Source: Candidatus Minusculum obligatum (GTDB lineage Bacteria > Patescibacteriota > Minisyncoccia > Phycocordibacterales > Phycocordibacteraceae). From it: DNA of 64,000 nucleotides. The stretch lies in assembly GCA_045401155.1 (NCBI GenBank), contig CP174360.1:419079-483078 (forward strand). Direction: 5' to 3'. This document shows, one piece after another, positions 13,793 through 55,166 of the stretch (position 1 is the first letter of the stretch; every line of letters begins with the position of its first letter). The notes under the pieces were generated by a model. That model searched no databases, was not told the DNA's origin, and worked only from the letters and a program-made list of their open reading frames with translations. The translations under genes were made by a program, and so were the position numbers.

Positions 13793-14308
13793 TTACTTTT
13801 CGTTAAAGGTTGCTACTTGTACTTTTGCTGGTCTTATAATCTCCTCTCCCTTCTTATATCCCTTTTGTAAAACTTGGGTGATCGTATCGTCTTCTTCTTT
13901 GTTATCAGTTTCTACGGTTCCCATTGGCTCGTGTAGATTTGGATTAAATGGTTCGCCAATTGGATTTACCTCCTCGATACCCATTCCTTCTAGAAGCTGT
14001 CTTTTGATAAGCTTCACTCCTTCATTTTCTTCATGAGCGAGTGCACTTTCAAGAGAGTCTAGTGCGGGAAGAATTTGTTCAATACATGAACGAAATCCAT
14101 ACTCAAATTTCTTCCCACCTTCCTCTTCAAGACGTTTCTTCGTATTGATGAAGTCCGCTTTTGCGCGCTGCCAACCGTCTAGATATTCCTGTCGTTCAGC
14201 CTTACATTTCTTTAGTTCCTCTCCTATCTTCTTGGCATCTTTTGCCTTTAATGAAGAGGTATTTTCCTGCTCTTCTACGAATTCAATGTCTTCGTGTGAA
14301 TCACTCAT
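13793..14308 (-). CDS. grpE: nucleotide exchange factor GrpE
   Basis: Coiled-coil N-terminus and GrpE beta-domain; immediately upstream of dnaK. Confidence 0.88.
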
Positions 14309-14355
14309 GTGTCCCCTAGTATGGGAATTTTTTTGTCTGTGTCAAGGTAATCTCC

Positions 14356-14910
14356 TTGCTGTTTTATTCACAAAGTAATAACATTCAAAATATGGAATGT
14401 AGTAATTGCAAAACTCACATTGAACCGTCAGATAATTTTTGCACGAACTGCGGTACAGAAACTCCTCAGGTTTATTTTTATGGAAAAAATTGGAGAAAAC
14501 AACACTCAATTGTTTTAGTAAAAAGTAACAATTATGACATTTTTATATCTGATAAATCTTTATACATAATAAAATTTAAGGCTGTTATTGGGGCAGGAAT
14601 AGGTTTTCTCTTCGGGCTTATTATTCTATCAATCCTTGGTGCTTTTATTGGAGGTTTAATTGGAAATCGTTTTGATGAAAGAAAAATAAAAAGAACACGC
14701 TCTACTTGGATCACAGATAGCAATCGATTAATTTCTAAAAAATATAAAGAGTTTGTTTATATTCAAATTCCTTTTGAGGAAATTTCTCGTTCTTTAGAAA
14801 TTAAAGATAAGAAAATTCACATTTATACAAATAACAAGAAGTATACATTTTTAAAAAATAAAGAAGAGATTGCCCTTTTAAAGAAAAAGCTAAAAAAATA
14901 TGTTTTGTAA
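14356..14910 (+). CDS. zinc-ribbon (CxxC-x11-CxxC) single-pass membrane protein, hypothetical
   Basis: N-terminal CSNCKTHIEPSDNFCTNCG, one TM helix (GIGFLFGLIILSILGAFIGGLIG). Strongly AT-rich, Lys/Ile/Asn-rich gene. Confidence 0.4.
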   Translation: MLFYSQSNNIQNMECSNCKTHIEPSDNFCTNCGTETPQVYFYGKNWRKQHSIVLVKSNNYDIFISDKSLYIIKFKAVIGAGIGFLFGLIILSILGAFIGGLIGNRFDERKIKRTRSTWITDSNRLISKKYKEFVYIQIPFEEISRSLEIKDKKIHIYTNNKKYTFLKNKEEIALLKKKLKKYVL

Positions 14911-15457
14911 AAAATGCGGAAAGGAAATTTTAGAAAGTAATGTAAACAAAACCTGTCTTTCTTGTGAAAAAAATATACTTGAAGATAAGAAAAAGGATTT
15001 AAGAGAAAAATGGGGCCTTGGAAAATGGACTTTTATTGTAATAGTTATTCTTATTCTTTTGTGCATTAGTATATTTTTTTCAATAATAAGAAGTGAAATT
15101 GAATATCAGAATGAAGTTGACTCTAGTTTTTCATCACAACTTTTTATGGAAAATTTGGCGAAAGATATTCAAAGCGGTTATGGAAAACTCCCCGTAGAAA
15201 TTAATGACTTTACAACACTGGATAAAATTACAGGAGAATCTCAAAAAATTATATATTCATATACTCTTTTTGGTGTTTCCCATATAAACAACGATGAGGC
15301 TTTGGAGATTAAAAAAGAATTGACCCAAAATCTTTGTTCTCTAGAAGATGTTCAGATTTTTATAGATGGAGAAGTTGTTTTTGAATACAATTACTACAAT
15401 GATTCATCTTTTTTATTAAAAACAATATCAGTAAATTTTAAAGATGACTGCACTTAA
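14900..15457 (+). CDS. zinc-ribbon single-pass membrane protein, hypothetical
   Basis: N-terminal CKKCGKEILESNVNKTCLSCEKN, one TM helix. The start overlaps the stop of the upstream gene (coupled). AT-rich. Confidence 0.4.
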   Translation: MFCKKCGKEILESNVNKTCLSCEKNILEDKKKDLREKWGLGKWTFIVIVILILLCISIFFSIIRSEIEYQNEVDSSFSSQLFMENLAKDIQSGYGKLPVEINDFTTLDKITGESQKIIYSYTLFGVSHINNDEALEIKKELTQNLCSLEDVQIFIDGEVVFEYNYYNDSSFLLKTISVNFKDDCT

Positions 15458-15471
15458 CCTCGAGCGATACC

Positions 15472-15499
15472 AAAAAACCGCCTCCCGGCGGTTCTTCTC
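15472..15499. terminator. bidirectional intrinsic terminator between the zinc-ribbon pair and rpsI
   Basis: AAAAAACCGCC-TCCC-GGCGGTT followed by a T-rich run; A-run on the other side. Confidence 0.6.
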
Positions 15500-15500
15500 T

Positions 15501-15899
15501 TTATCGCTTGCTCCACTGTGGAGACTTTCGAGCCTTTCGAAGACCTGGCTTCTTTCGCTCCTTGATTCGAGCATCTCGTGTAAGAAGTCCGTCTGCCTTT
15601 AGAGGACCTCGAAGCTTCTCATCAAGCTTCACAAGAGCACGTGCGATTCCGTGTCGTACGGCGTCCGCCTGTGCGCGCTGTCCTCCTCCTACTACTTTTG
15701 CTGATACGGCAAAATCTTGTGTTACGTCATCATGCTTTAGAGCCTCCTCGATGATCGCAACGTACTCAGGTGAGCTGAAGTAGTCAGCTGCCTTCTTGTC
15801 ATTTACGATAACCTCAACCTTATCTGCAGGAGTAATACGCACCCGTGCATTTGCGGTCTTTCGTCGTCCAATTCCCTCTGTGTATCGTGTATCAGCCAT
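15501..15899 (-). CDS. rpsI: 30S ribosomal protein S9
   Basis: C-terminal RDARIKERKKPGLRKARK...SKR signature. Confidence 0.95.
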   Translation of the reverse strand: MADTRYTEGIGRRKTANARVRITPADKVEVIVNDKKAADYFSSPEYVAIIEEALKHDDVTQDFAVSAKVVGGGQRAQADAVRHGIARALVKLDEKLRGPLKADGLLTRDARIKERKKPGLRKARKSPQWSKR

Positions 15900-20673: not shown

Positions 20674-21069
20674 TTATGAAGCAAGACTTTGGTCTAGGAA
20701 ATCCTTAAGAGCTTTTAGATTCCTTGTCTCTTTATCATAGTGATATGTTGGGATTCCTATAGATTTCGCACTTTCCACCGCTTCAGCATTATGCTCAAAA
20801 TACACAACATCGTCTTTTGAAAGATTGAGATAATCTAACATACGAACAAAGTATTCGGGATCAGCTTTTGTTGGGTTTTGATCTAGACTAAATACTTCAT
20901 ACGGCATATTTACTATCCCGAGACTTTCTCTTTGTTCAGGATTTGCATTTGTAAGAATAATTTTTTGATTTTGATATGTTTCGAGTAAGTCATAAAGAGG
21001 TTTGTAAACTCCTTCACCTTTTATAAAAAATGTGTGGACTGCATCTACTAAAATTGTCTTCATACGCAC
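20674..21069 (-). CDS. HAD-like fold protein (degenerate motif I; possibly non-catalytic)
   Basis: ILVDAVHT in place of DxDxT, a downstream ILTNA and acidic motif IV-like region; 131 aa. Confidence 0.35.
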   Translation of the reverse strand: MRMKTILVDAVHTFFIKGEGVYKPLYDLLETYQNQKIILTNANPEQRESLGIVNMPYEVFSLDQNPTKADPEYFVRMLDYLNLSKDDVVYFEHNAEAVESAKSIGIPTYHYDKETRNLKALKDFLDQSLAS

Positions 21070-52660: not shown

Positions 52661-53602
52661 TTAGAGAGTCATGAAAAGAGCACCTTTGCTTCCATCTAAA
52701 TTAATTTCATAAATATTAAATTGTTCTTTTGCTCCAGGCATGCCTGGAGAACCGCTTGGCATACCTGCCATGCCAATACCTTTTATAGGCGGCCTTTCCG
52801 CAAGAAGCTTTTGTACAGCCTCTTCAGGAACATGTCCTTCAACCACGTACCCTCCAATCGTCATAGTATGACAGCTTCCAAGTTCACTTGGAACACCAAA
52901 CTGCTCTTTTATAGCAATGAGCTCATCTGTATTTTCTGCAACCACATCGTATCCCTTACCTTGAAGGTGTGCGACATATCCTGAACAACATCCACATGTA
53001 GGTGACTTATATACGGTTGCGATAATATCTTTTGCTTCAATCATTGCGACTTCGCTAGAACTGATCTCTCGATAAATATCACGCATGAGATTTATTTCTT
53101 CTGACTGATTTACAATGATTGCATTAGCAAGAGCTGTTATTTCTTCATGCTCTGCAATTGGAAGCACTGTTTGAGCCATCATGATTGCACCCATGTGATG
53201 CATAGTCATATCATGAAGGAATACTCGATCAAGATTTTCTCCTGAAAGAGATTCGAGCTCCCTCATCATGGGCACGTACACGCCCTGATCTATGTACTCT
53301 TCTTCATACCACTTCTTATAATTTTCCTTCATTTGAGCGACTTCTTTTGTCTGTGTTGAGATAATGTTTTCTGAGAGAGAAACCATACGCTCTACTGTTC
53401 CGCCACGCCCAAGAACTTCTTGTGCTGTAGAAATAGCCTCTTCGTGGTGTGGAATCATGTGCTCTAAAAATTCACGCTCATTAGAGAAGTTTGGAACCAT
53501 CGCATGTTGTACCGGTTGCTTTTCCATAAATGAATTGTTTAAAAACAAAACTGCCACAGCAACCACAACCCCTCCCAAAAGAATTAATCCTGCATTTTTC
53601 AT
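52661..53602 (-). CDS. DUF305 (ferritin-like, HH-motif) fused to CopG/DUF411-like CxCC metal-binding domain; putative periplasmic copper-homeostasis protein
   Basis: Signal/TM N-terminus; twin HH motifs (MIPHHEEAI, MTMHHMGAIMMAQ); C-terminal TCGCCSG...SCHTM, a CopG-type CxCC motif. Confidence 0.65.
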   Translation of the reverse strand: MKNAGLILLGGVVVAVAVLFLNNSFMEKQPVQHAMVPNFSNEREFLEHMIPHHEEAISTAQEVLGRGGTVERMVSLSENIISTQTKEVAQMKENYKKWYEEEYIDQGVYVPMMRELESLSGENLDRVFLHDMTMHHMGAIMMAQTVLPIAEHEEITALANAIIVNQSEEINLMRDIYREISSSEVAMIEAKDIIATVYKSPTCGCCSGYVAHLQGKGYDVVAENTDELIAIKEQFGVPSELGSCHTMTIGGYVVEGHVPEEAVQKLLAERPPIKGIGMAGMPSGSPGMPGAKEQFNIYEINLDGSKGALFMTL

Positions 53603-53662
53603 AGTTTTCCAATTCTACACTAGTAAACAAAAGACGTTAAATTCATTTGCTACACTGTATGC

Positions 53663-54115
53663 ATGAACCACTATAAAAATCTTTTTCTTTCAATTGCAAC
53701 AAGCTTTTTAGTAATGTACGCGCTTACGTATATTGCTGTATACGCATGGGGTGACATCTATTTATTTAGCACCCGAAGTTTATACATGGCTATGATCATG
53801 ATTGCGCCAATGATCTTGATTATGCTCATTTTTATGGGAAACATGTATAAAAACAAAAAACTAAATACTGCATTGTACGTATTTAGTATTGGCTTATTTT
53901 TTCTCTCTTTCCTCTTTATACGAAAGCAAGTGTTTGTAGACGATACACAATTTTTACGCTCTATGATTCCCCACCACTCAAGCGCAATTACCATGTGTAA
54001 AGAAAGTTCCCTATCTGACTCAGAAGTTATTGAGCTTTGCGAGAACATCATTACTGCTCAACAAAAAGAAATAGACCAGATGAACTCTATTTTAGAACGA
54101 CTAAAAAATAACTAG
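53663..54115 (+). CDS. membrane-anchored DUF305-like protein (single HH repeat)
   Basis: Three TM helices, then MIPHHSSAITM...CENIITAQQKEIDQM. Paralogous to the N-terminal half of the divergent 52661..53602 product. Confidence 0.5.
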   Translation: MNHYKNLFLSIATSFLVMYALTYIAVYAWGDIYLFSTRSLYMAMIMIAPMILIMLIFMGNMYKNKKLNTALYVFSIGLFFLSFLFIRKQVFVDDTQFLRSMIPHHSSAITMCKESSLSDSEVIELCENIITAQQKEIDQMNSILERLKNN

Positions 54116-54131
54116 AGCTAAAGAAAGTTAA

Positions 54132-54189
54132 GTTAAAAAGAAAAACCAGCAGTCGCTGGAATTTCTTTTTTTGGATTTATCCAAAATTG
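54132..54189. repeat. 58-bp direct repeat copy 1 (bidirectional terminator hairpin + TTTGGAT-NN-ATCCAAA palindrome)
   Basis: gttaaaaagaaaaaCCAGCagtcGCTGGaatttctttttttGGATttATCCaaaattg. Identical to 55032..55089 except for 3 nt; the two copies are exactly 900 bp apart. Confidence 0.85.
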
Positions 54190-54219
54190 AAGCGATTAGG
54201 AGCTGGTTGGAATCTTTAC

Positions 54220-54819
54220 TTAACTAAGACTCTTAAGATCTTCAATAATCTCTGAAAACTCATTCTCATTGAAGTGTCCTCTGTCTTTAAATGCTCGTAT
54301 ACGAGCATTTGGTAACAACTCTTGATATCTTGATAAGTGAGAGAACGGAACAACCTGATCATCCTCGCTATGATACAGATAAATATCTGACACCTGTTCA
54401 CGAAGCAATGAAAGGTCATTCTCAATATTAAAGTCCACATATGGATCTTTTTCTATTGAATTAAATGGTGCAGCAACTAAAAACAGTGCTTTAATTTCTT
54501 TTTGATATTTTTCTTCAGAAAGATACTTTGCAAGAAATATTGCACCTAGAGAATGCCCAATACACACCACCTTCTCATCAAGAAGTGGAACTATCTTTTC
54601 AAACATTATCTTCCACTCAGAATATTTTGCATTATCTCTGCAAGGCATTGATGGCATGAGAATATCGTAACCATCTCCTAAAACAGATTGCAGATGCATC
54701 TTCCAACCACCGGGCCGTAATCTAGTCAGTGTTATTTCTTTCTCTTTGAGTGCTTGGAGGTATCCATCATGAGTTTCGTATGCACTTCCTCCACTAATAA
54801 CAACAATTTGTTTTTTCAT
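54220..54819 (-). CDS. alpha/beta hydrolase, YdeN/RBBP9-like serine hydrolase
   Basis: Nucleophile elbow GHSLGA with downstream Asp/His. The start is placed at MKKQIVVISGG, because the longer track ORF (to 54885) would read through a GC-rich terminator hairpin. Confidence 0.7.
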   Translation of the reverse strand: MKKQIVVISGGSAYETHDGYLQALKEKEITLTRLRPGGWKMHLQSVLGDGYDILMPSMPCRDNAKYSEWKIMFEKIVPLLDEKVVCIGHSLGAIFLAKYLSEEKYQKEIKALFLVAAPFNSIEKDPYVDFNIENDLSLLREQVSDIYLYHSEDDQVVPFSHLSRYQELLPNARIRAFKDRGHFNENEFSEIIEDLKSLS

Positions 54820-55089: not shown

Positions 55090-55092
55090 TTG

Positions 55093-55166
55093 TGGACTCG
55101 AGAGGAATCGAACCCCCGACCTCCTCAGTGCAAATGAGGCGCTCTAGCCAACTGAGCTACGAGCCC
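55093..55166 (-). tRNA. tRNA-Ala (anticodon UGC)
   Basis: Manual fold: acceptor GGGCUCG/CGAGUCC with the G3:U70 Ala identity pair, D-arm GCUC-AGUUGGCUA-GAGC, anticodon stem CCUCA/UGAGG with loop UUUGCAC, T-loop GGUUCGAUUCC, discriminator A. CCA is not encoded. Confidence 0.9.

Follow-up and report, generated by a model that had tools for sequence, protein, structure and literature searches.

How two AT-rich genes came to stand between two conserved operons, and what their products may do, is the question raised by a stretch of 64,000 nucleotides from Candidatus Minusculum obligatum, a member of the Patescibacteriota (contig CP174360.1, positions 419,079 to 483,078 of the forward strand). This whole stretch is referred to below as the window, and positions are counted from its first letter. 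The two genes, designated orfA and orfB, are on the plus strand between grpE (13793-14308, minus strand) and rpsI (15501-15899, minus strand), and the neighbouring genes are nearly all on the minus strand. An initial annotation, made from the letters and reading frames of the window, had described the segment as a compositional island and a horizontally acquired cassette, with signalling, anti-sigma-like, abortive-infection or toxin-like roles as candidates. The reading favoured here, to which a probability of roughly 0.55 was assigned, is that orfA and orfB form a cassette of two accessory genes, acquired horizontally at a site that is variable throughout the lineage, and that they encode a conserved pair of proteins with a role in the envelope or at the cell surface; housekeeping and control of a sigma factor are both excluded under this reading.

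The composition of the segment was compared with that of the remainder of the window. The interval 14393-15457 has a G+C content (GC) of 0.274, against a 64-kb mean of 0.417 (standard deviation, sd, 0.029 for windows of 1065 bp; z = -4.9), and is the GC minimum among the 1065-bp windows of the 64 kb, the second-lowest value being 0.337. The two lowest values among the 72 long open reading frames (ORFs; 0.419 +/- 0.038) were those of orfA (0.275) and orfB (0.274), and the same two genes have the lowest GC at third codon positions (GC3: 0.205 for orfA and 0.190 for orfB, against 0.336 +/- 0.060 for the 72 long ORFs). The GC deficit was divided into two parts by calculating, for each protein, the GC expected from its residues under the window's own codon usage. 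Amino-acid composition explains about 0.09 of the deficit (expected GC of 0.33 for orfA and orfB, the two lowest of the window), and synonymous codon choice explains about 0.055 (observed minus expected GC: -0.054 for orfA and -0.057 for orfB; in the other genes the sd of this difference is 0.020 and the minimum -0.041). The island is real at the amino-acid level and at the codon level. The initial annotation is borne out on this point by windowed GC, GC3 and the codon-level GC of the 72 genes, and the windowed GC and codon usage that it had proposed as a check proved to be non-uniform (z and GC3 as given above).

Synteny was examined in 80 species loci of relatives, fetched with grpE as the probe (L001-L080). 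The order rpoA-rplQ-rplM-rpsI upstream of grpE-dnaK was found in 70 of the 80, as in the window, which agrees with the earlier placement of the segment between two conserved operons. Between rpsI and grpE lie 34 to 4604 bp of DNA with unrelated cargo, and no tblastn match to orfA or orfB was obtained in any of the 80 related loci. The site bounded by the rpsI terminator and the grpE promoter is thus a hotspot for cargo throughout the phylum (70/80 Patescibacteria species loci). In the three closest relatives (L001-L003), the flanking proteins are 64-89% identical to those of the window, and DNA similarity stops at the -35 box of grpE (about position 14347) and at the T-run of the rpsI terminator (about position 15474). 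The variable AT-rich segment, or cassette, was therefore delimited as 14348-15473, between the grpE promoter and the rpsI terminator, where GC is lowest; 44 nt of it precede orfA and 16 nt trail orfB. At the same junction, L001 carries a gene for a 220-aa membrane protein, L002 one for an LPD3-domain (polyvalent-protein-associated) protein on the opposite strand (L002:5543-5986), and L003 those for a TIGR04255 'sporadically distributed' protein and a 180-aa unknown protein (L003:4421-5907), in a gap with a GC of 0.32 compared with 0.41 for the locus.

Uniform composition together with orthologues in syntenic position had been named in the initial annotation as what would speak against acquisition. 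Neither was found, and the acquisition reading therefore stands: horizontal acquisition of the cassette is supported by its atypical GC, by its absence from the 80 loci, by its limits at the grpE promoter and the rpsI terminator and by the presence of homologous pairs in mobile-element-like contexts of 29-35% GC, described below. The search for a phage or plasmid context, also proposed earlier, was unsuccessful: tblastn of both proteins gave no match in 50,697 phage records or 72,556 plasmids, and scans of IMG/VR with both proteins and with the orfA alignment returned no relatives. As a point of nomenclature, L003 (DCYT01000001.1) is the GTDB representative of 'Patescibacteria group bacterium UBA2103', and NCBI gives the proteins of the window the same organism name; this name spans more than one species-level lineage, because the flanking proteins of L003 are only 64-89% identical to those of the window.

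The gene structures were defined as follows. orfA (14392-14910, plus strand) encodes 172 aa with a zinc ribbon, a glycine-zipper hydrophobic segment and a very basic C-terminal domain. orfB (14900-15457, plus strand) encodes 185 aa with a zinc ribbon, the motif KWGLGKW, one transmembrane (TM) helix and a predicted acidic ectodomain with two invariant Cys. The ATG at 14392, in agreement with the NCBI annotation (172 aa), is the most likely start of orfA, rather than the TTG at 14356. The start of orfB lies inside the end of orfA, in an 11-nt overlap, ATGTTTTGTAA (14900-14910, plus strand), which is read as YVL-stop in orfA and as MFCK in orfB. Two overlapping genes are thus present as annotated earlier, and the size of about 185 aa given for both products is right for orfB and most likely too large for orfA. 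The NCBI entry identical to orfA is named 'zinc ribbon domain-containing protein' and was the sole match in a word-indexed protein search, and orfB is named hypothetical protein ACJKSS_02510; for both, such searches gave no match beyond the query itself. Since the chance of an open frame of more than 170 codons in DNA of 27% GC was estimated from base composition at about 1e-7 for each, and since both products have homologues, orfA and orfB are regarded as real genes. No Shine-Dalgarno motif stands ahead of either start; this was rejected as a mark of foreignness, given that a clear motif is rare throughout the window (8/72 long ORFs). Many starts in the window show the pattern TAAT-ATG, in which a single base separates a stop codon from the next start; this points to coupling, or to Shine-Dalgarno-independent initiation, on a wide scale in this genome.

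Homologues of orfB were collected by an exhaustive HMMER scan of 1.84 billion cluster representatives (E <= 1e-3). The family proved to be sparse: the scan returned 66 representatives, many of them 175-199 aa long and aligning end to end, the best of which (P0003, 186 aa) is 36% identical to orfB (E 7e-26). The 3-kb contig that carries P0003 (L081, 35% GC) opens inside an upstream gene whose final 62 codons are 39% identical to the C-terminus of orfA (E 2e-14), terminate in YVL-stop and overlap the MFCK start by 11 nt. A full-length orfA homologue (194 aa, E 1.9e-25) is present in L085 (29% GC), which was found by a metagenome scan with a 2-member alignment that matched only N-terminal modules; this gene overlaps a gene for a 305-aa protein with a zinc ribbon, a TM helix and TPR by 11 nt. 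A further context, located on three contigs (L110-L112, 32% GC), contains P0016, which is 47% identical to the first 63 residues of orfB. The orfA homologue in L110 (172 aa, 35% identity over the full length, E 6e-35) runs into the gene for a 287-aa zinc-ribbon-TM protein through an overlap of 11 nt, ATGTATTGTAA, read as NVL-stop / MYCK; the WGxGKW motif is present in this partner, and its C-terminal domain (220 aa, unclassified) is unlike that of orfB. The overlap sequence in L081 and L085 is identical to that of the window.

In all four contexts (window, L081, L085 and L110), an orfA-type gene is followed by a zinc-ribbon-TM gene that overlaps it by 11 nt, and the outer domain of the partner varies (PA3611/AspS-like, TPR, or the 220-aa unclassified domain). 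This recurrence points to translational coupling of the two genes and to a physical association of their products, which may be mediated by the ribbon, the juxtamembrane motif and the TM helix. The translational coupling asserted in the initial annotation is accordingly likely, from the stop/start overlap in the four pair contexts, rather than directly demonstrated. The nucleotide identity at the junction is partly explained by the protein start that it encodes, because MFCKxCG is a very common beginning: the junction DNA pattern gave 17 matches in viral contigs, all of which were MFCKxCG gene starts without an orfA frame. The genes found beside the pairs and beside orfB-family genes include Prim-Pol/PriCT_1, XRE, HigB, M78/ImmA, sce7726 with Beta_protein, and an SLFN-g3 helicase, and in L085 an XRE-family helix-turn-helix (HTH) gene is located 5 nt upstream of the orfA homologue. 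Other orfB-family genes adjoin a serine recombinase and Rep, or Rep alone. The homologue-bearing contigs have 29-37% GC, except L087/L088 at 50%.

Several of these neighbourhoods were recorded in their own right. In L087/L088 (436-6738; contigs of up to 698 kb), an islet with an orfB-family gene, a serine recombinase and Rep (REP_ORF2-G2P) is directly downstream of dnaJ, and constitutes another insertion adjoining a chaperone operon. Tandem arrays of five to seven zinc-ribbon membrane-protein genes with similar content were seen in L085:447-3669 and L091:2229-6018: both contain a Zn_ribbon_15 protein, a zinc-ribbon-TM-Trypsin_2 protease and short zinc-ribbon-TM proteins, with the orfA homologue in the array of L085 and an orfB-family gene in that of L091, which suggests a larger conserved 'zinc-ribbon array'. 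On the same 29% GC contig, L085:4355-7538 is a conflict-system cluster with sce7726-family, Beta_protein (PF14350), HTH/M78 (ImmA/IrrE-like) and HigB genes. The gene for the generic zinc-ribbon-TM protein P0037 is just downstream of a type II-A CRISPR-Cas locus (Cas9, Cas1, Cas2, Csn2; L116:1-3049), and that for P0065 adjoins genes for RecT/YqaJ recombination. Mobile and defence loci are thus often accompanied by small genes for zinc-ribbon membrane proteins.

The zinc ribbon of orfB (14900-14977, plus strand; residues 1-26) has the spacing C3-x2-C6-x12-C19-x2-C22 and by itself falls under the Pfam cut-off; its four Cys are invariant in 21/21 family members, 19 of which match Zn_Ribbon_1 (Pfam). 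The TM helix (15026-15088, plus strand; residues 43-63, hydropathy maximum 3.43) is preceded by KWGLGKW (15008-15028), and a WGxGKW motif is common to orfB, P0003 and P0016, the partners of orfA homologues. There are 6 Lys/Arg on the N side of the helix and 1 on the C side, and throughout the family the N flank of this helix is rich and the C flank poor in these residues; from these flanking charges, an N-in/C-out orientation with an extracytoplasmic C-terminal domain is predicted. This ectodomain (15137-15454, plus strand; residues 80-185) is acidic, the C-terminal domain containing 9 Lys/Arg against 22 Asp/Glu, and includes the invariant C146 (15335-15337) and C184 (15449-15451). The residues invariant in the 21-member alignment (A1) are the four ribbon Cys, P98, T105, Y119, Y121, C146, Y165 and C184. 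A profile search with the orfB family retrieved few members. Between orfA and orfB, the profiles align solely over 26 zinc-ribbon columns (hhalign and BLASTP), so the distinct C-terminal domains described earlier are confirmed by profile-profile comparison.

The orfB family resembles, by profile, QSregVF (PF13652; Pseudomonas aeruginosa PA3611, structure 3NPD) and the AspS/GspS-beta pilotins (PF16549; structure 4FTF), and its ectodomain, at about 100 aa, is of similar size. PF13652 was matched by 4/21 family members (best E 1.8e-6) and PF16549 (T2SSS_2) by 2/21; in a search of the Protein Data Bank (PDB) with the family profile, 3NPD, whose entry is labelled 'putative secreted protein', was the top match (E 3e-4, profile positions 80-170) and 4FTF had an E of 0.56. 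A Foldseek search of the PDB with the single-sequence AlphaFold2 (AF2) model of orfB, which is of low confidence in the ectodomain (predicted local distance difference test score, pLDDT, 34-57), gave no match at E <= 0.001. The fold of AspS is also that of PA3611 (root-mean-square deviation 2.1 A), the disulfide C74-C111 of AspS is conserved in PA3611, and a hydrophobic groove is present on the surface of PA3611; the corresponding region of AspS has been proposed to bind the S-domain of the secretin (Dunstan et al., PMC3542185). C146 and C184 of the orfB family, invariant in 21/21 and 38 residues apart, fit this disulfide (PMC3542185), and the ectodomain of orfB may be a remote, membrane-tethered relative of the PA3611/AspS (QSregVF) fold, with a putative bond between the two Cys. 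orfB differs from these proteins in having an N-terminal zinc ribbon and a TM anchor instead of a signal peptide or lipobox, and in its Patescibacteria host; no secretin-equivalent partner was identified here. Two family members have unusual architectures: P0004 (279 aa) has two tandem PA3611-like domains with a Cys pair in each, and P0010 (1898 aa) has nine stretches that match the last 35 residues of orfB and may be a repeat protein built from a partial domain. The layout of orfB is also that of the YvbJ-like, COG4640-type bitopic proteins of Firmicutes and uncultured bacteria (ribbon MxCxxCG...FCxxCG, one TM helix, variable outer domain). One member of the orfB family is called YvbJ by IMG, and such genes occur in tandem arrays; the outer domain of YvbJ-type proteins is unlike that of orfB and, to our knowledge, no conserved overlap with an orfA-type partner has been described for their genes.

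The zinc ribbon of orfA (14392-14460, plus strand; residues 1-23) has the spacing C3-x2-C6-x10-C17-x2-C20 and matches Zn_ribbon_3 (Pfam; 33 bits, gathering score 27). With spacers of x10 in orfA and x12 in orfB, the CxxC-x(10-14)-CxxC ribbon noted earlier in each protein is supported by Pfam and family data. The approximately 40 residues that follow are predicted to form a beta-hairpin (single-sequence AF2, low confidence). A hydrophobic segment of 28 residues, AVIGAGIGFLFGLIILSILGAFIGGLIG (14581-14664, plus strand; residues 64-91), which was delimited by hydropathy and flanking charges and is followed by a basic stretch, is rich in GxxxG and weakly matches Gly-zipper_Omp (Pfam). The C-terminal domain (14668-14907, plus strand; residues 93-172) contains 23 Lys/Arg against 10 Asp/Glu and is kept across four homologues, terminating in (Y/N)VL-stop; no significant Pfam, NCBIfam or PDB sequence match to it was found, and the orfA-family profile gave nothing below E 0.6 against PDB sequences. 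By its charge pattern this domain is probably cytoplasmic, and export of the charged, Cys-rich N-terminal part is unlikely. A hairpin or re-entrant anchor is therefore as plausible for orfA as a single pass. The earlier description of two single-pass membrane proteins holds for orfB and is not established for orfA, in which both flanks of the hydrophobic segment are basic.

The Gly-rich TM segment of orfA with its basic stretch resembles the N-terminal TM domain of DjlA (NF006948; DjlA_TM, PF27507). Residues 65-110 of orfA match positions 3-47 of the 267 of NF006948 (NCBIfam; E 4.5e-4, 19.9 bits, cut-off 162), the orfA homologue of L085 matches the DjlA TM region with an E of 4.4e-5, and that of L110 has a weak precomputed match to PF27507. 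The TM segment of DjlA is a dimerisation domain, and the C-terminal part of the protein is in the cytoplasm. Unlike DjlA, orfA has no J-domain (no DnaJ match in Pfam) and no central domain, and has an extra zinc-ribbon N-terminus of 63 residues. The identification of orfA as a DjlA co-chaperone was rejected, as only the TM region is matched, at 19.9 bits against a cut-off of 162, and there is no J-domain.

Under the favoured reading of an acquired cassette with an envelope or surface role, orfA would be the constant subunit, with a zinc ribbon, a glycine-zipper membrane segment and a very basic, probably cytoplasmic C-terminal domain. The downstream gene would encode an exchangeable subunit, with a cytoplasmic zinc ribbon, WGxGKW, one TM helix and an outward domain that varies between elements; in orfB, this outer domain would be small, acidic, probably disulfide-bonded and displayed for binding outside. 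The two subunits would be made in a fixed proportion and joined in the membrane by contacts between their TM and juxtamembrane parts, and the pair would thereby present a ligand-binding ectodomain on the cell surface. The cassette would then be mobile-element cargo with an envelope or surface function, for example surface recognition or exclusion. The mobile-element and conflict genes beside the homologues in the three other contexts make surface recognition, exclusion or defence more likely than housekeeping. An ambitious extension, which we consider improbable, is that orfA-type proteins are the constant subunit of an undescribed modular mobile membrane system of Patescibacteria and other low-GC uncultured bacteria, translationally coupled to interchangeable zinc-ribbon-TM 'receptors', in which a ligand outside would gate the glycine-zipper subunit and so cause surface exclusion or permeabilisation of the abortive-infection type.

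A number of observations weigh against the favoured reading. Amino-acid composition accounts for approximately 60% of the GC deficit, and at the codon level the shift is only about 2-3 sd; no convincing direct or inverted repeats flank the cassette, only chance-level matches having been seen; no integrase or recombinase gene adjoins it, and the sole tRNA gene of the window is at 55092-55166. Only four independent contexts of the pair were found, the window included, and genes of the orfB family are also seen with no orfA partner, frequently as members of tandem zinc-ribbon membrane-gene arrays. The topology of orfA is ambiguous, orfB alone reaches no QSregVF threshold (no match in Pfam at E <= 1), and the single-sequence AF2 models of the two proteins are of low confidence (pLDDT 51 and 59). 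The compositional and insertion-site observations would suit native, fast-evolving and lineage-specific membrane proteins, whose AT-richness would come from a Lys/Ile/Asn composition and weak selection, the variable junction reflecting rapid gene turnover with no transfer. Such an account is favoured by the mostly amino-acid-driven deficit and by the lack of an integrase, repeat or tRNA at the site, as well as by the abundance of zinc-ribbon-TM proteins in Patescibacteria and low-GC genomes and by the variability of the junction in many species. It is nevertheless judged unlikely: the pair is missing from all 80 related loci, those of relatives whose flanking proteins are 80-89% identical included, its homologues occur alongside Prim-Pol, Rep, recombinase and toxin-antitoxin genes in contexts unrelated to this one, and both GC3 and observed-minus-expected GC of orfA and orfB are the two lowest of 72 genes. 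That the ORFs are spurious, being open frames in an AT-rich spacer, can be virtually dismissed. The lack of a Shine-Dalgarno motif before either start would agree with it, but such motifs are rare genome-wide (8/72 genes), chance is very unlikely to produce frames of more than 170 codons at 27% GC, and the homologues of both proteins, with conserved Cys, TM and domain motifs, already refute it.

Other functions were considered for an acquired pair. A membrane-acting defence, abortive-infection or toxin-like module, in which orfA would oligomerise into a pore or membrane disruptor and the zinc-ribbon-TM partner would be its sensor or inhibitor, is suggested by the HigB, M78/ImmA, sce7726 with Beta_protein and SLFN-type helicase genes near homologous pairs, by the GxxxG-rich segment of orfA, by the exchangeable partner domain and by the sporadically distributed genes that relatives hold at the same site. 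Against it, neither protein has an enzymatic or known effector domain (Pfam, NCBIfam), and the association is guilt by association from three contexts; PADLOC-DB v2 gave zero matches for both proteins at E <= 1, so that an abortive-infection or toxin module of a known type, as suggested by the initial annotation, found no support, and the module in this general form is rated as improbable. The signalling or anti-sigma-like pair, which would control transcription across the membrane, is very improbable. Its cytoplasmic zinc domain, one TM helix and outer domain are shared with the zf-HC2/ZAS anti-sigma factors (RsiW, RslA), and the XRE-family HTH gene near the L085 orfA homologue could be brought in its favour; the ribbon, however, is CxxC...CxxC and not HxxxCxxC, no zf-HC2 or anti-sigma domain was matched at E <= 1 (Pfam), and no sigma-factor gene adjoins the pair in the window or in the L081, L085 or L110 contexts, the neighbours in the window being grpE and rpsI. 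The cassette with an envelope or surface role is retained as the preferred explanation.

The flanks of the cassette and some other parts of the window were also annotated. A promoter-like site of grpE, TTGACA-16-CATACT (14318-14345, minus strand; 10/12 match), is kept in L001-L003 and belongs to the native flank. A G+C-rich hairpin, AACCGCC-TCCC-GGCGGTT, was located by a terminator scan at 15476-15493, between the convergent orfB and rpsI; hairpin and T-run are kept in L001-L003, and the hairpin is the native rpsI terminator, possibly shared by orfB and rpsI. Rfam and tRNA scans found nothing near the cassette. Milder low-GC spots of the window are 53571-54635 (GC 0.337) and 191-1255 (GC 0.352), and a gene for 131 aa at 20674-21069 has a GC of 0.34 and a GC3 of 0.23. 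A 150-aa protein with three TM helices is encoded at 53663-54115, by one of the few other plus-strand genes of the window.

Zinc-ribbon-TM proteins with variable outer domains are common but uncharacterised, and the QSregVF/AspS fold was already known. Apparently new are the orfA family, whose overlap with exchangeable partners is conserved, and the definition of the cargo hotspot between rpsI and grpE; the putative TM-anchored relative of the PA3611/AspS fold also appears new in comparison with the signal-peptide and lipoprotein forms described. The value of these results is mainly that of an annotation lead, and no long-standing question is answered by them. The hotspot could be used for cataloguing accessory genes across the phylum. 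As the genomes of Patescibacteria are tiny and these bacteria depend on contact with a host, imported membrane proteins of the surface, such as those that this cassette may encode, are candidate factors in host interaction or phage protection.

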